From the NCBI GenBank assembly GCA_028717685.1, contig JAQUNI010000001.1:54306-118305 (forward strand): 64,000 nucleotides of DNA, read 5' to 3'. A program made the translations under genes and the position numbers. The notes under the pieces are model-generated. The model was not told where the DNA came from. It worked only from the letters and a program-made list of their open reading frames with translations, and did not search any database. Shown piece by piece: positions 3,747 to 63,480 of this stretch. How positions within the stretch are numbered: position 1 is the stretch's first letter; each line of letters starts with the position of its first letter. Origin of the DNA: Patescibacteria group bacterium (lineage in GTDB: Bacteria > Patescibacteriota > JAQUNI01).

Positions 3747-3873
3747 TTTTTTGCAATTTCTCTTTTATTTTATTTTTGGAGAAATTACCTGTTAATTTTT
3801 AGTTTTTGTTTTTGCGACTTTTTGATAAAAATAATATAGCAAAAAAAAGGGGAAAGGTCAATGATTTGCATTT

Positions 3874-3922
3874 GACCCCACTAGAGAAACATGCCCCACA
3901 CGAATTTCTAACGGGGTTGACC
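3874..3922. repeat. copy of the dispersed CCCCGTTAGAGAA / TTCTCTAACGGGG palindromic motif family
   Basis: gaccccactagagaaac...tttctaacggggttgacc in the divergent intergenic region. Confidence 0.5.
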
Positions 3923-4035
3923 TTCCAGAAATAAAGTTTTATAATTAATTTAACAGCACGAAACTTGCCTGTACTTTTTGAAGTTAAGACGAATAATGTC
4001 CTCCTTCGTTCTAGCGAACTACGGAGGGCAAAAAA

Positions 4036-9883: not shown

Positions 9884-11242
9884 ATGGCCGGAACGCAAAA
9901 TCAAAAAGAAATAGAAAAAATGCCGCCTCAAAATATTGAAGCCGAGAAATCGGTTTTAGGGGCGGTGATGCTTGATCAAGACGCAATCATAAAAATCGCG
10001 GACACGATTAATGCCCAGGATTTTTATGTGCAAAAAAACAAACAAATTTTTGAAGTAATGCTTGAGCTTTATGAAAAGAGAGAACCGATTGACATCTTAA
10101 GCCTGTCTAACTGCCTGGAAAACAAAGGCACATTAAAAGAGCTGGGGGGGTCAACGTATTTAACGAGCCTCGTGAATAGCGTGCCTAGCGCCGCGAATAT
10201 TTTGCATTACGCGAAGATTGTTCGGGAAAAAGCGACCTTGCGCAGACTGATTCAAACTGGCCAAAAGATTGTGGAGTTAGGATATCTGGAAGAAGAGGAT
10301 TTGGAAAAATTATTAGATAAAGCAGAGCAAGGATTATTTTCCGTTTCCCAGAAATACTTAAAACACAATTTCATCCCCATCCAGAGTATTTTAACCGAGG
10401 CCTTTGACCGCATTGATGAACTCCACAAACAGAAAGGCAAGCTCCGCGGCTTGCCGACAGGCTTTACAGATTTAGATAATCTCCTGGCAGGTCTGCAAAA
10501 TTCCGACCTTATTGTCCTCGCCGCCAGACCTTCAATGGGGAAAACTTCTTTAGCCCTGGATATTGCCCGCCAAGTAGCCACGCAAACGAAAGTGCCGGTT
10601 GGCATCTTTAGTTTGGAAATGAGTAAAGAACAGCTTGTGGACCGTCTCCTTTGCGCCGAAGCGGGCGTGGACCTTTGGAAAATGCGTACCGGTAAAATTA
10701 AAGAGGATGAATTCCCATATATTGGCGAGGCAATGGGCGTTTTGGCGGAAACGCCGATCTTTTTAGATGATTCCGCAACCAGTAATATTATGGAAATCCG
10801 CACTAAAGCCCGCCGCCTGCAAATGGAGCATAAAGTGGGACTCTTAATTATTGATTATTTGCAGTTGATGGAGGGCCGCACAACTGACAATCGGGTGCAG
10901 GAAGTTTCAGAAATTTCCCGCAATTTAAAGGCAATTGCCAGAGAACTTAATATCCCCGTCCTTGCTTTGTCTCAGCTCTCGCGCGCCGTGGAATCGCGCT
11001 CACCGGCCATTCCTCAACTTTCTGATTTACGCGAATCGGGCAGTATTGAACAAGATGCCGATGTGGTAATATTTATCTATCGGGAAGTAATGTACAAGCG
11101 GGAAACCGAACGCGCTAATATTGCCGACATCTTTATTAAAAAACACCGCAATGGTCCTACTGGCCAACTGGAGCTTTATTTTAACGAAAATCAAGCTTCA
11201 TTCAAAAATCTAGACAGGCAACACAGTGAACTAACTACCTAA
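9884..11242 (+). CDS. dnaB: replicative DNA helicase
   Basis: 452 aa, N-terminal PQNIEAEKSVLGAVM, Walker A ARPSMGKTS, DnaB C-terminal RecA-like domain. Confidence 0.92.
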   Translation: MAGTQNQKEIEKMPPQNIEAEKSVLGAVMLDQDAIIKIADTINAQDFYVQKNKQIFEVMLELYEKREPIDILSLSNCLENKGTLKELGGSTYLTSLVNSVPSAANILHYAKIVREKATLRRLIQTGQKIVELGYLEEEDLEKLLDKAEQGLFSVSQKYLKHNFIPIQSILTEAFDRIDELHKQKGKLRGLPTGFTDLDNLLAGLQNSDLIVLAARPSMGKTSLALDIARQVATQTKVPVGIFSLEMSKEQLVDRLLCAEAGVDLWKMRTGKIKEDEFPYIGEAMGVLAETPIFLDDSATSNIMEIRTKARRLQMEHKVGLLIIDYLQLMEGRTTDNRVQEVSEISRNLKAIARELNIPVLALSQLSRAVESRSPAIPQLSDLRESGSIEQDADVVIFIYREVMYKRETERANIADIFIKKHRNGPTGQLELYFNENQASFKNLDRQHSELTT

Positions 11243-12448: not shown

Positions 12449-12452
12449 ATTT

Positions 12453-12492
12453 ACCCCGTTAGATTCGGTTTAGAAATATATTTCTAAACGGG
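12453..12492. repeat. copy of the CCCCGTTAGA palindromic motif family
   Basis: ccccgttagattcg-gtttagaaatatatttctaaac-ggg; inner part is a perfect palindrome. Confidence 0.5.
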
Positions 12493-12499
12493 ATTGGAT

Positions 12500-14037: not shown

Positions 14038-14145
14038 TGAAAAAAATTAAAAATGAAAAGTGAAAAATGTAAAATTAAATTGAAAACAATTTTTTCATTT
14101 TAGATTGTGATTTTTAATTTTTCATTTTATATTTTACGTTTTCTA

Positions 14146-15735
14146 CTACACTTCCTTAAACAGCGCGCTGGAATGGGCTTTTGCGTCTTTGATATTTTCG
14201 GCTTTATGCAGCCGCGGTTTAGGCGTTACTAAAAAGCCCATATATTTTTTTAAGGCAAGTCGCGTCTGGGCGTCAATCGCGGGCACGCTCCCAAAAAAGA
14301 TGGTTACAACGGGCAGTAAAATCCACTGTAAAACCATATAAAAATACTCATAACGCCGATGCCGTTTGGGTCGCGGCGGCACTAAAACTGTGGAAATAAT
14401 CGCGGAAACGAAAATCCCAACCATAGAAAGGGACATTAAAAGCCGCGTCAAATAGGGAAGATTGCGCGCTAACACTGTTTCCCGAAAATCATCGCCTCCC
14501 AGAAATATGGGCATCCAACCGACAACCATTAAAATAATCGCCGTTACCGCCCAAGAATATTTTCCCTCTAACTCCCTGTAAATAATGCGCGTCTTTTTGA
14601 AAAAAGGAATGCCGCGCGTTCTTATGGAACGAAAAATCACATAAGGCAAATTTTCCACGCCCCAACCCCAACGCCTCCGCTGTTTATATTGATTTACAAT
14701 ACTTTCCCAAAAAGATCTGCCCAAAACCGTATCCATAGAGACCGGCATATAAAGAGGAATCACGCGATAGTTCCCGCGATAATGGAAAAAGCATTGATAG
14801 AAAATGCGCGAGTCTTCCGAGACGATATTCGTCTGCCAAAAACCGATTTCCACCGCGGTTTGGAAGCTCATCGCGTGGGAAGAAAAAGTTCCCATTCGCT
14901 CTGGACGCTCCTGCTCCATCATATGCCAAAAGGTAGTGGAAGCGCTAGCCACGCGCGCGAGAGCCGGCGCATCCCAAAGGTTGTTATTAAAGAAAGGAAC
15001 AGGTTGGTAGGAAGCGCGCGTCCGATTTGGTGTCGCAAGATAATGATAGGCAAGACAGGAAAAATATCTGGGGTGGACACAGGTATCGGCGTCAAAAACA
15101 GAAACGATCACATTGTCATAGGGGATACCCTCTCTATCAAGCCATTTTTGGACCTCGCGACCCGCCCAAGTCTCGTTAGAACCCTTGCCGGCAAGTTCGC
15201 CGATAATATCGCCAGGGTGCACCGTAACCATAAATTTATAAAACTTGCTGCCAAATTTTTCTTCTAGGGCACCTGCGTTTTTTAAACCGTTTTCACAATC
15301 CCTCTCTTCCACGCCGAGCACAACAATCATCTTCCCTGTAGGATAATCGGAATCCACTAGGGCTTTAAAAGTGGTTTCTAAAACCTCCAATTCTTCTTTA
15401 TAAGTAGGCAGGATAATCAAATGATAAAGCTCGCTCCATTTTTTATCACCCTGAAAGCTCTGGCATTTTGAGAACCAATCCGTTTTCAGATAGCGCTTCA
15501 TGCGAAAATAAGAAGCAACCTGGTGGATGCAAAGATAAGAAACGCGCAAGAGCCAGTGCAAATCAAAGGCAATAATAAAAATCGCCACGGAGACAGGCTC
15601 AATAAATGAGAATATAATACAAGAAAGAAGCGTGCCCCAAGCCAAAGCCGCAGGAAGAATTTCTAAACTGCGATAAAGAATCCGATCAGAGGGGCTATCT
15701 AAACTTGTGTAGTGAGCGATACCTTTAGGGTCCAT
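14146..15735 (-). CDS. membrane glycosyltransferase family 2, processive type
   Basis: 529 aa with VFDADT (DXD) and QRRRWGWG (Q-x-x-RW) motifs of cellulose/chitin-synthase-like GT2 enzymes, flanked by TM segments. Confidence 0.7.
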   Translation of the reverse strand: MDPKGIAHYTSLDSPSDRILYRSLEILPAALAWGTLLSCIIFSFIEPVSVAIFIIAFDLHWLLRVSYLCIHQVASYFRMKRYLKTDWFSKCQSFQGDKKWSELYHLIILPTYKEELEVLETTFKALVDSDYPTGKMIVVLGVEERDCENGLKNAGALEEKFGSKFYKFMVTVHPGDIIGELAGKGSNETWAGREVQKWLDREGIPYDNVIVSVFDADTCVHPRYFSCLAYHYLATPNRTRASYQPVPFFNNNLWDAPALARVASASTTFWHMMEQERPERMGTFSSHAMSFQTAVEIGFWQTNIVSEDSRIFYQCFFHYRGNYRVIPLYMPVSMDTVLGRSFWESIVNQYKQRRRWGWGVENLPYVIFRSIRTRGIPFFKKTRIIYRELEGKYSWAVTAIILMVVGWMPIFLGGDDFRETVLARNLPYLTRLLMSLSMVGIFVSAIISTVLVPPRPKRHRRYEYFYMVLQWILLPVVTIFFGSVPAIDAQTRLALKKYMGFLVTPKPRLHKAENIKDAKAHSSALFKEV

Positions 15736-15793
15736 AAAAAAAATGTAAAATTAAAAATGAAAAATGTAAAATAACATTTGAGATTTTACATTT

Positions 15794-16207
15794 TTACTGG
15801 TTAATATAAATAAGACTTACTGCTCCGATTAAAACAAAAATTTGCACCGTGAACGCGGTTAAAAGTAAAATATAATTTACAAGACGATCTTTCAAATAAA
15901 ACCAAAAACCGAGGACAAAATTCATTAAGATAATGAAGAGCCCGATTAAAGGAAGGGTAAAAACACGGTGATAAGAACCGATTAAATCAATGCCAAAATA
16001 GATATTATAATGAAGAGGAATGGGATATTCCGAGGGTTTGATAAAATAAGCCAAAAAAATCCAACTTAAAATGTTAAAAAATAAGCTCCCCAAAAAAAAT
16101 CCTAAATTAGTTTTATTGCGCCAAAACTGGGCGCGAAAAAAGCTCCGGACATAAGCCCAGAAATGGCGAAAAATATTCGGTTTTTCTTGATTCTGAACTT
16201 CTTGCAT
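15794..16207 (-). CDS. hypothetical membrane protein
   Basis: 137 aa, four hydrophobic segments, no motif recognised. Confidence 0.4.
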   Translation of the reverse strand: MQEVQNQEKPNIFRHFWAYVRSFFRAQFWRNKTNLGFFLGSLFFNILSWIFLAYFIKPSEYPIPLHYNIYFGIDLIGSYHRVFTLPLIGLFIILMNFVLGFWFYLKDRLVNYILLLTAFTVQIFVLIGAVSLIYINQ

Positions 16208-16414
16208 CTTGCTATAACTATATCTAAAAAAGCCTTAAAAGTAAACCCCGTTAGAGAATTTTGTCGTCCTTCGGTTCTTTGAGCTGAGCTCAAAATTATA
16301 TCCCTACTGTTCATAAATTAGATTGCTAAAATGTGGAATATTTTCTATAATAAATACGAAGTGACATCAGTAAACCCCATTAGGGAACGAAGCTTTCTAG
16401 CAGGGTAAATAAAA

Positions 16415-18019
16415 ATGCACACAAAAAGCAAAATCACAGTAGTTTTATTTTTACTGATTTTGATTCTCGCCGGCGTCTTCCGTTTTTGGCAAATCAGGGA
16501 TCTTCCTGGCGGACTCTACTCGGATGAAGGCGCGAATGGCTTGGATGTTTTGGATATCTTATCCGGCAAGAACCGCGATGTCTTTTATGAGCGCAACTAT
16601 GGTCGGGAGGGATTATTCTTCTACCTGCTCGCTCTCTCGGTTAAAATTTTTGGCATTGGTGTCTGGCAAATGAAAATCGTCTCGGGGATTTTAGGAATCC
16701 TCACGATTATCGGCCTTTATCTCTTGACCAAAACACTTTTTAACCGCACGATCGCCCTTTTAGCCTCTCTATTTGCCGCAGTGTCTATTCCTTATACTTT
16801 CTTGAGCCGCGTGGCTTTCCGCGCCAATATGCTGCCTTTTGTCTCGGTTTTTCTTTTTTATTTCTGCGTGAAGACCCTCAAAGATAAAAAGGATAAATAC
16901 TTTTATTCTTTTTTAGCCGGCATCTTCTTAGCCTTAGGATTTTATACTTATATTTCTTTCCGCATTATCCCCTTCTGCATCATCGCTCTTATTATCCTAT
17001 TTGAAATTATTTGCCGCCGCACTGGCAACCCGAAAGGATTTATTGTCCCTCACCGAAAACAAATTTTCACTGCTCTTATTGCTTTTCTGATTGCCATCGC
17101 GCCTCTTGCTTTCTATTTCTACCAACACCCCTCTTCTTTTTTTGGCCGCGCCAATGATGTTTCTATTTTGAATCCCAATCTAGCGCATGGCCCTTTTTAT
17201 TATCTCCTCCGTAATGTTGGTCTCACCGCAATTATGTTTAATGTCTATGGCGATGCCAATTGGCGCCATAATCTTTCGGAAGCGCCATTTTTTGACCCTG
17301 TGACTGGCGTTCTTTTCTTAGTCGGCTTGATCATCGCGGCGACTATATTTTTAAAAACAGGTTTAAAAGTTTTAAAGCATAAAGACATCGCTTTGCGCGA
17401 AACCTTTGCCGGCTATCTTCTTATTTTTGGCTGGCTTTTCAGCCTCCTTGTTCCGATGATAGCAACAGAAGAAGCAATTCCGCATTTCTTGCGCAGTATT
17501 GGCATTATCCCTGTCGTGTTTATTTTTCCCGCTTTGGGTCTGCGCGCCCTTTTCTTACGCATCCGCTACCGACCAGTGATGCTCGGTTTCCTGCTTCTTC
17601 TTTTAGTTGTCTTTGTGGTTAATTATAATCTCTGGCTATATTTTCAAGTAGCTAAAAACTCTTACGGATATTATACCTCCTATTATGGCGATTTAACTTT
17701 GGTCAGTAACTATATCAATGAAATTAACACGGGTAATACTAAATCCTCTCTCACTACTAGCGCTAATACTTTTCTAGTGCTTGATGATAAGGCTGACCGC
17801 ACTGTCAGCTTCTTAACTGCGCCCGCGAATCCTTATACTTTAATACCAATCAACGCAGAGATAAAAACGACCTATCCCGAAAGCGCGAAAATTATCTTCC
17901 CCTCTTTAAGTTTTAATCGCTTGGCTTCCTTCCAGAATATTTTCCCGGAAGCGAGATTAGTCTACGAAGAATACAATCGGTTTGGGGAAAAGGCGTTTGA
18001 AGTATATACCCTGCAATAA
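16415..18019 (+). CDS. GT-C glycosyltransferase family 39 (ArnT/PMT-like)
   Basis: 534 aa polytopic protein with the first-loop acidic motif (YSDEGANGLD) typical of ArnT/PMT-type GT-C enzymes. Confidence 0.7.
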   Translation: MHTKSKITVVLFLLILILAGVFRFWQIRDLPGGLYSDEGANGLDVLDILSGKNRDVFYERNYGREGLFFYLLALSVKIFGIGVWQMKIVSGILGILTIIGLYLLTKTLFNRTIALLASLFAAVSIPYTFLSRVAFRANMLPFVSVFLFYFCVKTLKDKKDKYFYSFLAGIFLALGFYTYISFRIIPFCIIALIILFEIICRRTGNPKGFIVPHRKQIFTALIAFLIAIAPLAFYFYQHPSSFFGRANDVSILNPNLAHGPFYYLLRNVGLTAIMFNVYGDANWRHNLSEAPFFDPVTGVLFLVGLIIAATIFLKTGLKVLKHKDIALRETFAGYLLIFGWLFSLLVPMIATEEAIPHFLRSIGIIPVVFIFPALGLRALFLRIRYRPVMLGFLLLLLVVFVVNYNLWLYFQVAKNSYGYYTSYYGDLTLVSNYINEINTGNTKSSLTTSANTFLVLDDKADRTVSFLTAPANPYTLIPINAEIKTTYPESAKIIFPSLSFNRLASFQNIFPEARLVYEEYNRFGEKAFEVYTLQ

Positions 18020-18044: not shown

Positions 18045-18181
18045 ATAATTTTCCCTGCGAAAAATTTTCAATTTTCAATTTCTAATTTTTATTAAATTTT
18101 TAATCTTAAAATTTTTAAACATTTAAAATTGATTTATTGAAAATTTAATAAAAATTGAAAATTAGAAATTAAAAATTACTT
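18045..18181. repeat. AT-rich MITE-like element, copy A (terminal inverted repeats aattttcaatttctaattt / aaattagaaattaaaaatt)
   Basis: Left TIR 18070..18088, right TIR about 18160..18178; element ends in aaaattactt directly abutting the ATG of the next gene. Highly similar to copy B. Confidence 0.55.
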
Positions 18182-19933: not shown

Positions 19934-20090
19934 ATTTCTAATTTTCAATTTCTAATTTCTATTAAATTTTTAATTTTAAAATTTTCAAACACCATTAGAA
20001 ATGAAAAATTTCTAGACGGGATAAACCTTTTAAAAATTAATTCATTAGAAATTTAATAAAAATTGAAAATTAGAAATTGAAAATTACTTA
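19934..20090. repeat. AT-rich MITE-like element, copy B
   Basis: Left TIR 19940..19958 and right TIR 20067..20085 are perfect reverse complements; internal sequence near-identical to copy A; right end overlaps the stop codon of the convergent gene. Confidence 0.55.
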
Positions 20091-22469: not shown

Positions 22470-22499
22470 AAGCTACGGTTTTTTTATTCTACTAGACCC

Positions 22500-22640
22500 T
22501 TCTCCGCCTCCCGCTTCCCAAGGGGAGAGGAGTTATTATCCCCTCCTTTCCAAGGAGGGGCTAGGGGAGGTTCTGAGTCAGAACCCCACCCATCCTCCCC
22601 TTGGAAAGGGGAGGTGGGGGGAGAAAGGAAGGGGTCTTTC
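22500..22640. repeat. GC-rich imperfect palindrome / hairpin cluster (probable bidirectional terminator)
   Basis: Hairpins cccctcc-tttccaa-ggagggg and cctcccc-ttggaaa-ggggagg arranged around the perfect palindrome ggttctgagtcagaacc, between the island and the convergent serS. Confidence 0.5.
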
Positions 22641-31410: not shown

Positions 31411-31518
31411 AAAAAAGCGTAAAGTGAAAAGTGTAAAGCGTAAAGTGTAAAAAATAATAACCCAGTATTTTAAGTTGCACGCTGTTCATTTTATGCTTTA
31501 CGCTTTAAGTTTTAAGCT

Positions 31519-32559
31519 TTATTTATACTGCGTGTCCACCAACACCTCGCGCAAGAGGTCTAAATTTTCTAAGACCATGCCCGCGCCCCGAACAACACAA
31601 GTCAAGGGATCATTGGCGATCTGGACGGGCATCTGCGTCTCGCGTGCGACAAGACGGTCAAGACCGCGCAGGAGCGCGCCTCCGCCCGCCAAAATAATAC
31701 CCCGATCCATAATATCCGCGACAAGTTCAGGAGGGGTTTCCTCAATCGTTCCTTTAATATTAGAAACTAGATTTCTGATGGAACGCGATAAGGCTTCGCG
31801 CACCTGACTATCATTAATAATCACCTCCTTTGGCAGACCCGTGACGAGGTCCCGACCGCGCAACTTTGCTTCCAAGGGTTTCTTCAAAGGCCAAGCCGAG
31901 CCAATGGCGATTTTAATTTCTTCGGCTTTCCTTTCGCCGATTAATAAATTAAAGTGGTCGCGGGAATATTGAATAACATTCTCGTTTAATTCATCTCCCG
32001 CAATCCGCAACGATCGCGCCACCACGCCCCCGCCCAGAGAAATTACCGCCATCTCGGTTGTGCCGCCGCCGATATCCACAATCATACTTCCCGAAGCATC
32101 TTGCACGGGAAGGCGGGAACCGATGGCCGCGGCCATCGGTTCTTCAATCAAGAAAGCTTGCCTCGCGCCAGCCGTGCGCGTGGCATCCTCCACCGCTCGC
32201 CGCTCCACTTCGGTGCAGCCCGAAGGAATGCCAATCACTACCCTAGGTCGCGGAATAAGAGTGAACATTCCTTGGTGCACCTTCTGAATAAAATATTTTA
32301 ACATCTGCTCGGTCACTTCAAAATCAGAAATCACCCCGTCCACAAGTGGACGAGTGGCTACAATATGCATCGGCGTTCTTCCCACCATCTTTTTCGCTTC
32401 ATTGCCAATTGCCAAAACCTGACCCGTCTTCGTATTCATAGCCACGACCGAAGGCTCATTGATGACGATGCCTTTCCCACGCACATACACTAAGGTATTC
32501 GCTGTCCCTAAATCAATGCCGATGTCGCGGGAAAAAGCGCCTAAAAAACGATTAAACAT
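31519..32559 (-). CDS. mreB: rod shape-determining protein MreB (actin-like)
   Basis: 346 aa, IGIDLGTANTLVYV phosphate-1 motif and DIGGGTTE. Confidence 0.92.
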   Translation of the reverse strand: MFNRFLGAFSRDIGIDLGTANTLVYVRGKGIVINEPSVVAMNTKTGQVLAIGNEAKKMVGRTPMHIVATRPLVDGVISDFEVTEQMLKYFIQKVHQGMFTLIPRPRVVIGIPSGCTEVERRAVEDATRTAGARQAFLIEEPMAAAIGSRLPVQDASGSMIVDIGGGTTEMAVISLGGGVVARSLRIAGDELNENVIQYSRDHFNLLIGERKAEEIKIAIGSAWPLKKPLEAKLRGRDLVTGLPKEVIINDSQVREALSRSIRNLVSNIKGTIEETPPELVADIMDRGIILAGGGALLRGLDRLVARETQMPVQIANDPLTCVVRGAGMVLENLDLLREVLVDTQYK

Positions 32560-34207: not shown

Positions 34208-34247
34208 GTGAACCCCATTAGAGAATGAAGTTCTCTAACGGGGTAAA
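34208..34247. repeat. copy of the CCCCGTTAGAGAA / TTCTCTAACGGGG palindromic motif family
   Basis: gtgaaccccattagagaa-tgaag-ttctctaacggggtaaa between rseP and proS. Confidence 0.55.
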
Positions 34248-34258
34248 TTTATTGAATA

Positions 34259-35356: not shown

Positions 35357-35480
35357 GGAAAATTTCTAATTGACCTAATGTCTAATTTCTAAATAATTCC
35401 CAATGTCTAATAACCAATGACTAAAGAAAAATTTTAGACATTAGACATCAGTTATTAGTTAGGTCAATATAAAAATTAGA

Positions 35481-36045: not shown

Positions 36046-36168
36046 GTAAACCCCATTAGAGAACTTCTTTTCTCTAACCCCGTTTGGAAATATGTTTCTA
36101 ACGGGGTCAGCGTCTATATTTTTCCCACCACCGACTTTGTCGGCGGCTTTCTCTAACGGGGTAAAAAT
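36046..36168. repeat. cluster of three copies of the CCCCGTTAGAGAA / TTCTCTAACGGGG motif
   Basis: gtaaaccccattagagaa...ttctctaacccc-gtttggaaatatgtttctaacgggg...tttctctaacggggtaaaaat, plus a ccgac-tttg-tcgg hairpin. Confidence 0.55.
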
Positions 36169-45176: not shown

Positions 45177-45303
45177 AATAAAATCTTTTTACCCCACACC
45201 TTTGTAAGAAGAGTACCCCGCGAGCCTAGGCTAACGGGTATGAATAGATATCAGTGAAATCCTTGCCTTCCGAGGTTTAATACTTCACGAGAAAGTGCGG
45301 GAT

Positions 45304-46281
45304 TTATTTTTTTTGCTGCAATAAAATTCCTTTCCGACCTAGAATTCTTTTTATCTCTTTTCTCGCCGAATCACCAATGCCGGGGATTTTGCCCAACTTC
45401 TCTTCAGTCATTTTAGCTAAATCTTTCACCTTGGTAACTCTTTTCTTCTTGAGAGCGTTCAACGTCCGCTTAGATAACCTTAGTTCCTCCAAAGACAAAT
45501 CTTCTAAAATGGCGGCGCTTGCCAAAACCGCTTTCTCTCTCTTATCCCCTACGTTCCGTCTCGGAGTCTTTTTAATCATCTCCTTGACTTTAGCCAGTTT
45601 TAACCCTGCCAGACAAGAAAAATGATTCACTAAAATCTTTGCCGCTTCTTCCAAGGCGTCTTTAGGGCTCACTGTACCATCCGTCTCCAAGTCTATATTC
45701 AACTTATCAAAATTCGTCATTTCTCCCACCCGAATATTCTCAATCTTGTAGGATACATTCTTAATAGGAGTAAAAATCGCATCAACGGCAATTTCACCAA
45801 TTTCGCGCTTCTCTTCCTCCCTTTGTTCCACTGGTTTGTACCCCCTCCCTTGACTCACTGTAATTTCCATCTCCAGTTCAGCTTTCTTATCCGTCAAGGT
45901 CGCAATGCGCAAATCGGGATTAGCGATCTCCACATCGCTCCCCGTTTTTATATCACGCGCCTTCACTTCCTTTTCACCCTTAACATTTAAAGTAATCTTG
46001 ACTGGTTCTCTTTTATACACTTTGAACCTCAACTGCTTCAAATTTAAAATGATATCCACCATATCTTCTTTCACAAAAGGCAAAGCGGAAAATTCATGAT
46101 CCACCCCCTTAATCTTTACCGCGGTTACCGCCCCTCCAGGCAAAGAGGAAAGCAATACCCTCCGCAGAGCATTGCCCAGGGTTAAACCGTATCCTGGAAA
46201 ACAGGGCTCAATTACTAAAGTCGCCCGATTCCCTTGGGATTTAATGATTTCCACTTTTTGCGGTAATTGAATTTCCTCCAT
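45304..46281 (-). CDS. rpoA: DNA-directed RNA polymerase subunit alpha
   Basis: 325 aa; N-terminal dimerisation domain and C-terminal HhH domain; sits between rpsD and rplQ. Confidence 0.92.
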   Translation of the reverse strand: MEEIQLPQKVEIIKSQGNRATLVIEPCFPGYGLTLGNALRRVLLSSLPGGAVTAVKIKGVDHEFSALPFVKEDMVDIILNLKQLRFKVYKREPVKITLNVKGEKEVKARDIKTGSDVEIANPDLRIATLTDKKAELEMEITVSQGRGYKPVEQREEEKREIGEIAVDAIFTPIKNVSYKIENIRVGEMTNFDKLNIDLETDGTVSPKDALEEAAKILVNHFSCLAGLKLAKVKEMIKKTPRRNVGDKREKAVLASAAILEDLSLEELRLSKRTLNALKKKRVTKVKDLAKMTEEKLGKIPGIGDSARKEIKRILGRKGILLQQKK

Positions 46282-46994: not shown

Positions 46995-47102
46995 AAATTC
47001 GGAATTAGGAATAGGGAATTATGAATCATGAATCAGAAATTAGGAAGCGAGGAAAAAAGCTGTTCATCTTTATTCCTGATTCCTGATTCCCACTTCCTTT
47101 AG

Positions 47103-47561: not shown

Positions 47562-47640
47562 AATGTTGGAATTAGGAATTGTGAATCAGGAATTAGGAAA
47601 GAAGAAAAAAGGCTATTCATCTTTATTCCTTATTCAGATT

Positions 47641-48364: not shown

Positions 48365-48583
48365 CTATAATGATCGATAAACGATGCGGCCGAGGGAAAG
48401 ATCATAAGGACTTAATTCCACGCGAACCCTGTCACCCGGCATAATCCGAATCTTGTTCAGCCGCATTTTACCGGAGAGATGTGCTAAAATCTCATGGCCG
48501 TTTTCCAGTTTCACCTTAAAGGTCGTAGATGGCAAAACTTCGGAAACTTTCCCCTCCATTTCAATTACATCTTTTCTGGACAT
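48365..48583 (-). CDS. infA: translation initiation factor IF-1
   Basis: 72 aa from the internal Met ([13 protein letters not shown]...). The ORF-track version (to 48631) adds 16 N-terminal residues that are probably not translated. Confidence 0.9.
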
Positions 48584-48721
48584 CCTGCCGGAAAACACAG
48601 GATTATTTTTAGTCTTCTTGAACTTAATCATAGGAAATAAAACCCCTTGAAAATCTTACTTAATGTAACATAAAATACTAAAAAAAACAAGGATTTCTGC
48701 TAAACCCGATTTACCCTGCGT

Positions 48722-48765
48722 GATAAACCCCGTTAGATCCCGTTAGAAATATATTTCTAACGGGG
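48722..48765. repeat. copy of the CCCGTTAGAAATA palindromic motif (perfect 26-bp palindrome)
   Basis: cccgttagaaatatatttctaacggg is a perfect palindrome, preceded by a direct half-site ccccgttaga. Confidence 0.6.
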
Positions 48766-48931
48766 CCACGCGTAGTTTAAAAACCACGCTCAAGGTGTTT
48801 TTATATTATATAACCAAAGACACTAAAGAAGCAATACCTCCCAAAGAAATATGACGAAATCCTTATCTCGCGGAGACAAATGCCTTTTAAATATTCTAAC
48901 ATTACAACTTCTTAAATTTACCAACTATTCT

Positions 48932-50736: not shown

Positions 50737-51096
50737 CTAAAAATTTTTCTTTTTATATTTTTTTAAAAGTTGATTTAATATTTTCAATAAAGGTTTTCGC
50801 CAATCATCTTCTAACTGAGATTTGATGAGTTGCACTAATATCTTATCTCCTGAAGTCAGATGCAATTTTTCCAACTTTTTACATTGAGCTAAAATTTCAA
50901 AATCAATATCGGTGGCTAAAACATATTTGCTTTTCTCTAATGGGGTTAACTGAAACTGCTTTGTCAATCTCTGTTTTCTTCTTTGAAGTAATTCCTGATA
51001 ATGCCTATCTTCTTTTAAAACTTTTCTTAATTTATATCCCTGATATCCTAGATTCAGATAAAAATCTTCAATCGCTTGCATTGATTTCTCTTGCAT
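50737..51096 (-). CDS. hypothetical protein
   Basis: 119 aa basic ORF immediately downstream of the FtsA-like gene on the same strand. Confidence 0.4.
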   Translation of the reverse strand: MQEKSMQAIEDFYLNLGYQGYKLRKVLKEDRHYQELLQRRKQRLTKQFQLTPLEKSKYVLATDIDFEILAQCKKLEKLHLTSGDKILVQLIKSQLEDDWRKPLLKILNQLLKKYKKKNF

Positions 51097-57242: not shown

Positions 57243-57312
57243 CTATTTTCTTGTGAACCCCGCTAGAGTTATTTTTATGGTTAAAACGGGGAAAAAAATA
57301 AAAATATAAAAT

Positions 57313-61764: not shown

Positions 61765-62124
61765 ATGAAAATTGAATCATACGAAAATTTAATTGTGTGG
61801 CAAAAGTCAATGGATTTAGTGATTGCTGTTTATGCATTGACAGGAAAATTTCCAAAAGCAGAACTATACGGTTTAACTTCACAAATGCGCCGCGCGGCTG
61901 TTTCAATTCCTTCCAATATCGCGGAGGGGAGCAGGCGCGGTTCTCGGAAGGATTTTAGAAATTTTTTACTCAATGCGTATGGTTCTGGTGCAGAGCTTGA
62001 AACTCAAGTTAAAATTGCGAAACGACTTTCATACGGAAAAACCAAAGATTATGAGCAGGCGGACGCGCTGCTCGATGAAGTAATGCGCATGTTAAACAAA
62101 TTGACGTATGGGCTCAAAGAATAA
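61765..62124 (+). CDS. four-helix-bundle protein (23S rRNA IVS-protein / Avd-like fold family), copy 2
   Basis: 119 aa from the ATG at 61765 (the ORF track starts at an upstream TTG). Ten substitutions relative to copy 1. Confidence 0.7.
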   Translation: MKIESYENLIVWQKSMDLVIAVYALTGKFPKAELYGLTSQMRRAAVSIPSNIAEGSRRGSRKDFRNFLLNAYGSGAELETQVKIAKRLSYGKTKDYEQADALLDEVMRMLNKLTYGLKE

Positions 62125-62746
62125 AAATCTACCCACTACAAACTACAAACTACCCACTCAACAAGGCTTCAGCCTTGTTGAAGTTATTCTCGCCAGCGCG
62201 GTGTTTGTTTTGTTCGTTACCGCGCTTGTCGGAGCGTACCTCTATGGGCAGGAGTCAACCGCGCTTGCCGGCAATCGCGCGCGCGCGACGATTCTTGCCG
62301 AAGAAGGGCTTGAGGCAGTGCGCAATATCCGCGATGCCGGATTTTCTAATCTCACCGACGGCACCTACGGATTGGCTGTTGTCGGCAACCAATGGGCGTT
62401 ATTCGGAACATCAGACACAACGGGTATTTTTACCCGCCAAATTACAATTTCCGCTGTAGATTCAGAACGAAAAAGCGTGACTGCGAATGTCGCTTGGCAA
62501 CAAAATGCCCAGCGCCCGGGAGCAGTTGCCCTGACGACCTATCTTACTAACTGGAAAAAGGCGACTCCTGTCAATTCCTGCGATATTTACTGCCAGTTGT
62601 TGGGAACCTATACCACTGGTACCTGTCGGGAAAATTCCCAACAATGTACTAAGTATGACGAGATTTATGAGGCGGGCGGTGATCCTATTTGTGTGACTAG
62701 TTTTCCTGGCGACGCCAGCCATGATACTTGTTGCTGCAAACCATAA
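62108..62746 (+). CDS. type IV pilin-like protein with Cys-rich C-terminus
   Basis: 212 aa: leader MGSKNKNLPTTNYKLPTQQG, cleavage motif G/FSLVEV (Glu at +5), hydrophobic helix; eight Cys in the last 55 residues. ATG overlaps the 4HB copy 2 stop. Confidence 0.7.
   Translation: MGSKNKNLPTTNYKLPTQQGFSLVEVILASAVFVLFVTALVGAYLYGQESTALAGNRARATILAEEGLEAVRNIRDAGFSNLTDGTYGLAVVGNQWALFGTSDTTGIFTRQITISAVDSERKSVTANVAWQQNAQRPGAVALTTYLTNWKKATPVNSCDIYCQLLGTYTTGTCRENSQQCTKYDEIYEAGGDPICVTSFPGDASHDTCCCKP
62129..62144. repeat. right inverted repeat flanking four-helix-bundle gene 2 (encodes part of a prepilin leader)
   Basis: ctacccactacaaact; in the pilin frame it encodes LPTTNYKL. Confidence 0.7.
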
Positions 62747-62751
62747 TTTAG

Positions 62752-62823
62752 GGATTAGTTTGTAGTGAGTAGTTGGTAGGTTGTAGTTTTCTACTCACTA
62801 CTCACTACAAACTACAAACTAAC
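62752..62823. repeat. inverted-repeat hairpin of the leader-coding motif with no gene in the loop
   Basis: agtttgtagtgagtagttggtag...ctactcactactcactacaaactacaaact: the same arms that flank the 4HB genes, here adjacent, just upstream of the pilin ATG at 62824. Confidence 0.6.
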
Positions 62824-63348
62824 ATGCTACCAACTACAAACTACCAACTACAAACCCAGCGTGGCTTCACGCTAATTGAACTGCTTCTCTATGTTGCCGT
62901 TGCGTCGGCGATACTTTTGGCGATTTCGGTTTTTCTTTCAATCCTCCTTCAGTCGCGCATCAAAAATCAAACTATCGCTGAAGTGGAACAGCAGGGGCTT
63001 CAAGTTATGCAACTCGTTACGCAAACCGCGCGCAACGCCGAGGCAATCACCTCGCCAGCGCAGGGCGCAAGCGCTTCATCTTTGACGCTTGACGTTATTT
63101 CTGCTGCCAGTGACCCCACTATTTTTGATCTCGCAAGCGGCGCGATTCGCGTCAAAGAAGGGGCTGGTTCAGCTACCGCTCTTACTAATTCTCGCGTTAC
63201 CGCTTCCGCTCTCACATTCCAAAATCTCTCTCGCACCGACACTCCGGGCACGGTTCGCGTCCAATTCACCCTCGCACATACAAATCCAGAAGGCAGAAAT
63301 GAATACTCATTTACTAAAACATTTATCGGCTCTGCGAGCCTGCGCTAG
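62824..63348 (+). CDS. type IV pilin-like protein
   Basis: Start taken at ATG 62824 (ORF track: 62773). Leader MLPTTNYQLQTQRG, cleavage motif G/FTLIEL (Glu at +5), hydrophobic helix LLYVAVASAILLAISVF. Confidence 0.7.
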   Translation: MLPTTNYQLQTQRGFTLIELLLYVAVASAILLAISVFLSILLQSRIKNQTIAEVEQQGLQVMQLVTQTARNAEAITSPAQGASASSLTLDVISAASDPTIFDLASGAIRVKEGAGSATALTNSRVTASALTFQNLSRTDTPGTVRVQFTLAHTNPEGRNEYSFTKTFIGSASLR

Positions 63349-63480
63349 TCATAATGCGGCAAATGCCGCAACGACTGACACTTGATACCTAGCACCTGAC
63401 AACTGACCACTAACATCTAACATTTTGTTAGGTGTCAGATGCCAAATGTCAGGTGTTAGGTGCTAGGTGTCAAGTGTTAA

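Follow-up and report, generated by a model that had tools for sequence, protein, structure and literature searches.

Correia elements (NEMIS), the MITEs (small transposable elements with inverted repeats) of Neisseria, are non-coding sequences, usually of 100-400 bp, with terminal inverted repeats, a short target duplication and a high copy number. They are mostly intergenic and polymorphic between strains, may extend over promoters and can fold into hairpins once transcribed. REP/REPIN sequences (repetitive extragenic palindromes), associated with the RAYT (TnpA-REP) enzymes, are short, dispersed, non-autonomous intergenic palindromes of about 20-40 nt, and the moving enzyme may be a single-copy gene elsewhere in the genome. 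As described in two publications, REPs have a 5' GTAG-type tag, make no target duplication and are species-specific (PMC6006769; PMC8266576). A family of dispersed palindromes in a 64,000-nucleotide stretch of DNA from a Patescibacteria group bacterium (contig JAQUNI010000001.1, positions 54,306 to 118,305; hereafter the window) resembles both systems. The host genome belongs to the Patescibacteria, or candidate phyla radiation (CPR), and is Doudnabacteria-like. The palindromes are selfish DNA and not the binding site of a regulator. They are short, non-coding elements that end in inverted repeats, are enclosed by a 4-bp duplication, have moved and have spread horizontally, and they quite probably represent non-autonomous transposable elements of a MITE/REP-like kind, for which a route resembling that of piggyBac and the IS1380 family is the best guess.

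The features of Correia elements named above are shared by the palindromes, apart from length: most copies are only about 24-50 bp, i.e. two inverted repeats back to back. Further differences are the lack of a known parent insertion sequence, the occurrence in at least five phyla and the fixed orientation of the flanking 4-mer. Among the candidates of the original prediction, which was made from the letters of the window, the REP-like element came closest, in that the palindromes are dispersed, hairpin-forming, non-coding, and gained and lost between close relatives. The likeness ends at the terminal inverted repeats with their 4-bp duplication, the variable, directly repeated flank, the absence of a GTAG-type tag and the arms common to several phyla; no RAYT gene was seen in the loci retrieved for comparison. 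The element is MITE-like in behaviour and REP-like in look, and unusual in its extreme shortness, cross-phylum spread, oriented flank and recurrent residence in pilin leaders.

All sites listed in the original prediction were present in the window, including the perfect 26-bp palindrome at 48739-48764 (CCCGTTAGAAATATATTTCTAACGGG) on which it was centred. A search with CCCCGTTAGAGAA and its complement, allowing up to two mismatches, gave 12 matches, compared with a mean of 1.61 and a maximum of 5 in shuffled sequence (0 of 100 shuffles reached 12). Hairpins were found at eight intergenic loci and solo arms at four places, and the copy density was about one per 8 kb. All full copies were located in the non-coding 14% of the window (P ~1e-7 for eight independent loci). 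A covariance model was derived from 54 copies of other genomes; unfiltered, it matched the window at the positions given in Table 1. Rfam was searched at gathering thresholds with the entire window and permissively with three regions, with chance-level matches only, and literature searching by sequence string and keyword found no paper that describes the element. Two of the listed sites had to be reassigned. The supposed degenerate copy at 45214-45240 was not matched by the model and is a hairpin inside another insertion of 111 nt, and the three copies counted at 36046-36168 are one long-form element with a short element nested inside. The overlap of the latter region with the start of frr was an artefact of longest open reading frame (ORF) calling; orthologues put the start at ATG 36002.

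A species-representative genome collection was scanned with the pattern CCCGTTAGARA-N(0-16)-TYTCTAAYGGG, for which about ten or fewer chance matches were estimated. At least 120 loci with 162 copies were obtained. The unit consists of C-CCCGTTAGARA, a loop and TYTCTAACGGG-G, within a 4-bp direct repeat. The terminal inverted repeats measure 12-13 bp (CCCCGTTAGARA and TYTCTAACGGGG) and are found at both ends of a small (24-165 nt), non-coding sequence present in multiple dispersed copies, as is characteristic of MITEs. The arms were nearly invariant in the 162 copies, and loops measured 0-16 nt, apart from a class at about 93-101 nt. The arms of the short form, which measures about 24-50 bp, face each other across a small loop; those of the long form, of about 115-165 nt, enclose a conserved interior. 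Stem pairing was observed in 96% of cells, compared with 36-55% when partner columns were slid. At three positions left free to mismatch by the search pattern, matching changes on both sides were seen in 6 of 34, 16 of 24 and 18 of 22 cases. A manual count of G-U against A-C imbalance gave 6 against 4, which is no bias of the kind that would have indicated selection on the RNA strand.

The flanks match each other directly. The central dinucleotide of the flanking 4-mer was the same on both sides in most copies (TT/TT 29, AA/AA 25) and complementary in few (TT/AA 4, AA/TT 2). In oriented form the flanks read N-TTTA-C, then CCCG...CGGG, then G-TTTA-C/T. The commonest 4-mer was TTTA, usually followed by C, and TTTA-type, TTAA and TATA flanks occurred in the ratio 54:7:1; TCAA, CGAG, CTGA and CTTG were also found. 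No conservation was seen further out than the flank, which speaks against an extended target such as a pseudo-recombination site. The GTTTAC flanks could be drawn as a stem extension with a 2x2 internal loop; this was rejected because the two positions of the supposed pair l5-r2 vary independently by statistics, while the left and right flanks match directly. An integron attC site was likewise rejected, since GTTAGA and TCTAAC stand in reverse order, with GTTAGA on the 5' arm, and the boundaries are in TTTA and not G/TT. A test for attC (RYYYAAC 5', GTTRRRY 3') revealed no cassette arrays.

Mobility is best seen by comparison with relatives. The retrieved loci are given L-numbers, and syntenic relatives of the window were available at about 91-94% DNA identity (L122, L145, L146, L155), about 76-83% (L123, L124, L147, L148, L157) and about 70% (L125-L128, L156). 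Upstream of corA, L155 (91%) has an empty site, AAGG-TCAA-ATATG, and the filled site of the window is AAGG-TCAA-[C CCCG...CGGG G]-TCAA-ATGC. The duplication thus comprises exactly 4 bp, and the terminal C and G are part of the element; a duplication of 5 or 6 bp, or a target TTTAC plus a carried tail, was rejected on this evidence. The flank statistics and the pilin paralogues described below agree with the L155 site in showing a target duplication of fixed length and a single copy of it in the empty site. The copy at 34213-34243 is missing from the 92% relative L122, where the rseP-proS spacer measures 18 nt, and from L123. The long-form cluster upstream of frr is present with changes in L122 and absent from L123, L124 and L147, where the spacer measures 9-48 nt, and from L127 and L128. 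In the 22-kb stretch of L155 orthologous to window positions 3.7-25.7 kb the model found no match, compared with four in the window; the spacer that holds the copy at 12450-12492 has unrelated sequence there. The copy at 16375-16405 is absent from L156 and L157, and a different hairpin is present in L155. L145 has a copy of its own, not present in the window, inside the last codons of rplM, where it alters the C-terminus of ribosomal protein L13. Conservation across related genomes, named as a check in the original prediction, was not the rule: orthologous spacers of close relatives lack individual copies. Copies thus differ between 91-94% identical genomes of a CPR lineage with genomes of about 0.7 Mb, which indicates recent activity of mobile DNA in genomes usually called transposon-poor.

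The same observations bear on a function in the host, by which the hairpins would be kept as stabilising or terminating stem-loops, as processing sites or as operators for a dimeric protein. Stable stems (down to -16 kcal/mol) whose pairing is kept through changes on both sides, the intergenic position of the copies and the one copy on a -35-like hexamer would all fit such a function. It is nevertheless highly improbable, given the target duplications at the flanks, the identical arms in unrelated phyla, the lack of an Rfam family, the copies in coding sequence and those missing from the same spacers of close relatives. The earlier remark that the palindromes are not simple intrinsic terminators was correct: no T-run follows the stem in the scanned copies (3874, 34208, 36046-36168, 48722), no scanned copy was called by a terminator scan, and copies also occur in divergent spacers and coding DNA. 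Element orientation followed neither the gene strand, with 10 copies on the same and 14 on the opposite strand, nor GC skew (34:33), so that no strand bias was observed. The random orientation and the absence of an Rfam match leave the proposed RNA processing site unsupported. For the proposed operator of an abundant dimeric protein, no support was obtained either, as copies lie in all spacer types, occur in coding sequence elsewhere, are missing from the orthologous spacers of the 91-94% relatives and have the same arms in at least five phyla. The original prediction had placed the copies in promoter-proximal or divergent regions. They were found equally in divergent, convergent and co-directional spacers. 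The copy at 3876-3916 adjoins a promoter-like site. This is a near-consensus TTGACC-17-TATAAT at 3917-3945 (+) upstream of corA, and its -35 hexamer overlaps the right-hand TTGA of the duplication. In this one case the promoter-proximal impression is trivially due to insertion into the TTGA of the hexamer, which was regenerated by the duplication and not destroyed, so that the promoter-like sequence was left intact.

The distribution of the element is wide. Among the matches listed, a manual tally by record title gave Patescibacteria 30, Omnitrophota 26, Planctomycetota 19, Desulfobacterota ('delta') 18, Nitrospirota 17, Proteobacteria 4 and a few others, and the Omnitrophota matches include the complete genome of Ca. 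Velamenicoccus archaeovorus. Six viral contigs carry ordinary copies of the element; no match was found in a plasmid collection. The sole 'archaeal' contig among the matches listed is L034, labelled Aenigmatarchaeota, which has three copies together with genes for CheD and response regulators. The contig may be bacterial and mis-binned, and occurrence in archaea is unproven.

The long form runs from left arm, loop and internal right-arm copy through a spacer with AAACCACC to a GC-rich hairpin (CCRCCGAY-loop-RTCGGYGG), CTTTC and the terminal right arm. The same architecture was found in L122 and L116 (CPR), L074, L021 and L066 (Omnitrophota) and L023 (Planctomycetia), with an identity of about 72-89% across these assemblies, non-arm sequence included. 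Several long forms are interrupted by short elements with 4-bp duplications of their own. As single-stranded DNA, the long form of L021 folds far better than shuffles (z = -6.3). That different phyla have near-identical arms, and an interior with 72-89% identity, directly demonstrates horizontal transfer, i.e. DNA exchange among these community members. The family accounts for a recurrent spacer feature in uncultivated groundwater and sediment bacteria that could otherwise be mistaken for operators, terminators or small RNAs.

An over-represented 13-mer that often stands in inverted pairs in spacers also recalls the DNA-uptake signals of Neisseria (DUS) and Haemophilus (USS), which likewise occur as inverted pairs between genes, and genes for type IV pili are present in the hosts (in the window, pilB and pilins). 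To our knowledge, uptake signals are lineage-specific and never common to several phyla, in contrast to an element shared across phyla. Single words are rare relative to pairs (4 solo arms, 8 hairpin loci) and almost absent from coding DNA, and the copies show target duplications and a conserved long form. The chance that the 13-mer is an uptake signal is considered negligible.

When 1,962 ORFs near copies were clustered, only generic families were obtained, with one specific cluster, which consisted of pilins with the element inside. Six in-frame pilin insertions were found: two in L026 and one each in L056 and L058 (Phycisphaerae/Pirellulales), L049 (Omnitrophota) and L116 (the genus of the window). 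The DNA reads GG.TTTAC[element]GTTTAC.TT.AT.GA and the interrupted type IV pilins ...G-F-T-P-L-E...F-L-T-G-F-T-L-I-E-L-L, the split being between G-F-T and L-I-E. The Gly-Phe-Thr codons of pilins supply the preferred G-TTTA-C target. The insert is located upstream of an intact N-terminal methylation (N_methyl) motif and thus lies in the cleaved leader; uninterrupted paralogues are found next door. Here a coding region tolerates a transposon because the leader is cleaved off. Such insertions will inflate or distort pilin gene calls. The palindromic elements of Rickettsia (RPE) are also inserted in frame inside protein genes, where the added peptide is tolerated (PMC10969869). They differ in length (about 100-150 bp) and in being restricted to Rickettsia, and the site tolerated by the present element is the leader peptide of pilins, which is removed. 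The window's own three pilin-like genes are uninterrupted. Two of them (62108-62746 and 62773-63348) have stop-free frames that cross low-complexity hairpin DNA before G-F-S/T-L-V/I-E motifs (LPTTNYKLPTQQ, LPTTNYQLQTQR), and a second hairpin type may lie in or beside pilin leaders in the region 62755-62851.

The flanking 4-mer keeps its orientation relative to the asymmetric interior of the element. When pairs of copies with similar loops, from different loci and sharing the 4-mer, were compared, 40 had it in the same and 8 in the opposite orientation, a statistic that represents a few dozen copies. By manual reading, 14 of 15 variants with CCCCGY in the loop were co-oriented, and six long forms with the left flank inside the locus had xAAA on both sides on the same strand (TAAA; TGAA in L122). 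Exceptions were L066 compared with L090, and the window copy at 34213. An oriented flank is not expected from staggered cuts at random targets; the flank must either travel with the element or match the target. Since the element encodes nothing, the moving enzyme must act in trans.

The IS1380 family makes a 4-5 bp duplication (ISfinder), and the tips of piggyBac (CCCTAGAAAG) and ISEcp1 (CCTAGATTC) resemble CCCCGTTAGAGAA. Excision of piggyBac is reportedly seamless, the excised DNA keeping its 4-nt flanks, as Mitra et al. are said to have found in 2008. In the piggyBac superfamily the tips are CCC and the duplications measure 4 bp (TTAA; TAAA, TCAA and others are rare); its prokaryotic relatives are the IS1380 transposases (PMC10813416). 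The present element has both the 4-bp duplication and CC(C) tips; it differs in an asymmetric target, TTTA and not TTAA, and is far smaller than the ends that piggyBac requires. By analogy, the mover may tentatively be suggested to be a cut-and-paste DDE transposase working like piggyBac or the bacterial IS1380 relatives, and among the mechanisms considered this is ranked first, movement as single-stranded DNA by an HUH enzyme second and template switching at microhomology third. The suggestion is constrained by the CCC(C) tips, the strict 4-bp duplication, the clean empty sites and the kept orientation of the flank. The excised element would carry its old 4-nt flanks as overhangs, which would anneal at the new target in piggyBac fashion, and relaxed target specificity together with annealing overhangs would give an inherited, oriented flank. 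Short forms could be moved by the same route, or could be made in place by collapse of a long form between its two direct right-arm copies. Many short forms have the CTTCG loop, which is the left hairpin of the long form, and this supports their origin in place from long forms. Effects on the host, namely transcript hairpins, insertion beside or within promoters, altered C-termini and extended pilin leaders, would be incidental. If confirmed, the inherited flank orientation would point to a transposition chemistry not yet described in bacteria.

Several observations weigh against a transposable element moved in this way. The tips of a duplex of 27-40 bp, which is too short to bend accordingly, cannot meet at one pair of transposase active sites in a synaptic complex; the short forms need another route or must have arisen in place from long forms. 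About 1.1 Mb of loci and the window itself yielded neither a transposase nor an autonomous copy (arms 0.6-4 kb apart with matching flanks), arm pairs at distances of 0.6-6 kb gave none either, and the neighbours of copies are ordinary genes, such as those for ABC ATPases, response regulators and ribosomal protein L9. The rseP-proS spacers differ by 56 nt rather than the 35 nt expected, with no duplication at the edges, and the left and right flanks of the rplM insertion in L145 differ, being TTTAC and CTTAT. The collection scan demanded perfect arms, so that arm divergence is under-sampled. Taxon labels are those of metagenome bins, of which single assignments may err; the wide spread is robust, as it extends over more than 100 bins. 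As for the enzyme, searches for distant arm pairs gave only the 93-101-bp elements and coincidences, no transposase of piggyBac/IS1380 type was found within the fetched loci, and the ORFs bracketed by two copies encode CheD, a sigma factor, OmpA and similar proteins.

The tiny hairpin would be a natural single-strand substrate, and the same element could be moved in this form by an HUH (Y1) enzyme, in the 'peel and paste' manner of IS200/IS605 or in REP/RAYT style. Insertion would then take place beside a TTTAC-like pentanucleotide, of which the right-hand copy would belong to the element. The IS200/IS605 family occurs in Bacteria and Archaea; IS608 inserts at TTAC and IS605 at TTTAAC, and TTGAT is also used in the family. 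The present target resembles these. Hairpin ends and orientation-specific insertion by a T-rich word of 4-5 nt are shared with IS200/IS605 and its palindrome-associated derivatives (PATE). Insertion is orientation-specific relative to the asymmetric TTTAC, the excess of TTTA-type flanks is large, the CTTAT at rplM differs from the target as if brought with the element, and nested insertions occur exactly after CTAAC within a right arm. Such a mechanism is still unlikely. The corA site shows C and G as the tips of the element and a duplication of exactly 4 bp (TCAA), whereas IS200/IS605 elements make no duplication and have no true terminal inverted repeats. Flanks match each other whatever their sequence (CGAG, CTGA, CTTG) while the arms are constant, and no internal 'guide' position that tracks the flank was noticed. 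Orientation follows neither gene strand nor GC skew. No Y1 gene was found near copies in the loci, and a screen of all ORFs of the fetched loci for HUH and Y motifs gave 0 candidates. The definition of an IS200/IS605-derived PATE, which also comprises insertion 3' of a fixed tetra- or pentanucleotide and a bias to the lagging-strand template, does not apply to the element; it agrees only in its preference for a TTTAC-like target and in being orientation-specific.

The lack of any transposase in the loci would be explained if no dedicated enzyme were involved. A nascent strand ending in the 4-nt flank could switch to a donor copy by microhomology, copy the hairpin and return. A new flank equal to the old one in the same orientation would follow from this, as would the many partial-arm duplications and nested forms, and the spread in very small CPR genomes would fit. 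Nevertheless, such a process would not keep 11-13 arm bases nearly invariant across five phyla, a conservation that indicates recognition of the arms by a protein; a homology of four bases is insufficient for efficient targeting, and arrival in new phyla would be left unexplained. Template switching is therefore regarded as very unlikely. A wider proposal can be made, which at present is doubtful: a single family of hairpin transposons, some barely longer than two 13-bp ends, would be active across CPR, Omnitrophota, Planctomycetota, Nitrospirota and Desulfobacterota. Its 4-nt flank would move along and have to match the new target, as a relaxed-specificity prokaryotic counterpart of the synthesis-free transposition of piggyBac or as a new hairpin-based route, and pilin leaders would be recurrent safe landing sites.

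Individual copies and other features of the window are collected in Table 1.

Table 1. Positions of palindrome copies and other features in the window, with the matches of the covariance model
Feature	Position	Strand	Remarks	Model match
Short-form element	3876-3916 (41 nt)	not assigned	loop holds CCCCACAC; 4-bp duplication TTGA at 3872-3875 and 3917-3920	3871-3921, E 0.018
Rearranged copy	12450-12492	+	extra left arm CCCCGTTAGAT, then full palindrome; between convergent recR and rplU	12449-12498, E 0.0015
Solo right arm with GTTTAC (read on - strand)	16241-16260	-		
Degenerate short-form element	16375-16405 (with flanks 16371-16409)	-	TAAA / TAAA; divergent spacer upstream of PMT-family gene	16370-16410, E 0.011
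Marginal degenerate copy	19985-20026	-	in loop of long low-complexity hairpin, convergent genes on either side	19985-20026, E 0.16, marginal
Short-form element	34213-34243 (31 nt; with flanks 34209-34247)	-	13-bp arms, loop TGAAG, TGAA / TAAA; between rseP and proS	34208-34248, E 3e-10, 41.8 bits, best match
Long-form element	36051-36161 (with flanks 36047-36165)	+	TAAA / TAAA; between BNR/glycosidase-like gene and frr	36073-36111, E 4e-8
Left arm, loop and internal right-arm copy of long form	36051-36079			
Nested short element, followed by spacer	36079-36106			
GC-rich hairpin of long form	~36128-36146			
Terminal right arm of long form	36149-36161			
Copy with perfect palindrome	48724-48765	-	extra arm 48728-48737 beside palindrome 48739-48764; TAAA on one side only	48733-48770, E 1.6e-8
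Single half site	50933-50945	-	inside ORF 50737-51096, read as L-T-P-L-E	
Marginal degenerate copy	57254-57291	-	between response-regulator gene and pilB	57253-57296, E 0.09, marginal
Sister-family insertion, not a member	45192-45302 (111 nt; with flanks 45188-45306)	+	tips CCCCACAC / (reverse complement) TCCCGCAC; TTTA / TTTA	
Long imperfect spacer hairpins	14043-14142, 15739-15805, 18063-18177, 31420-31521, 35382-35462, 62755-62851, 63376-63472			
GC-rich long hairpin	22494-22636			
68-nt repeat	47015-47082, 47568-47635		rpsM-rpsK and rpsK-rpsD spacers	
infA	48365-48631	-	88 aa	
ORF without family match	50737-51096	-	119 aa	

The copy with the perfect palindrome lies upstream of infA, at a distance of about 90 nt, and downstream of the gene for a 591-aa protein, at a distance of 167 nt. 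At this site L147 has a variant with matching changes in both arms (CCTGTTAAAT..ATTTAACGGGG), and L145 has a different sequence with a remnant of the element. The copy between recR and rplU has a matching one-base insertion in each arm of the palindrome (CGGTTTAGAAATA / TATTTCTAAACGG), with TTTA at the left flank and a right flank that does not match it. The solo arm at 16241-16260 is probably the right end of a decayed long form that reached to the copy at 16375. The orthologous arm (CCCTAACTGGGGTTTAC) is kept in L155, and a left-arm-like CCCCGTTGGTAG is found about 95 nt off.

The insertion at 45192-45302 is absent from L145 and L147, where 12 nt separate rpoA from rplQ. It represents a second element family, which follows the same scheme of tips and duplication and has related CCCC tips, and its tip sequence recurs in the loop of the copy at 3876-3916.

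Long imperfect hairpins of another style occupy most spacers of the window. Their arms are compositionally one-sided, one being nearly all A/G/T and the other A/C/T, and the strongest have predicted energies of -74 to -86 kcal/mol. Hairpins of the same style but unrelated sequence are present in the orthologous spacers of relatives, which indicates fast turnover. These hairpins may be the terminators of the lineage or another class of selfish hairpin. The two copies of the 68-nt repeat are 84% identical, and each forms a hairpin. The infA gene falls below the 90-aa ORF cut-off and mostly explains the 'gene-free' stretch of about 900 nt upstream of rpsM. The ORF at 50737-51096 has no Pfam or NCBIfam match. 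Compared with L145 and L147 it is an insertion, about 400 nt long, and it occupies the loop of a hairpin of low complexity between an ftsA-like gene and the 591-aa gene. The DnaB of L156 (about 75% relative; 14462-17080) contains an intein with a LAGLIDADG domain, and the dnaB of the window (9884-11242) has no intein.

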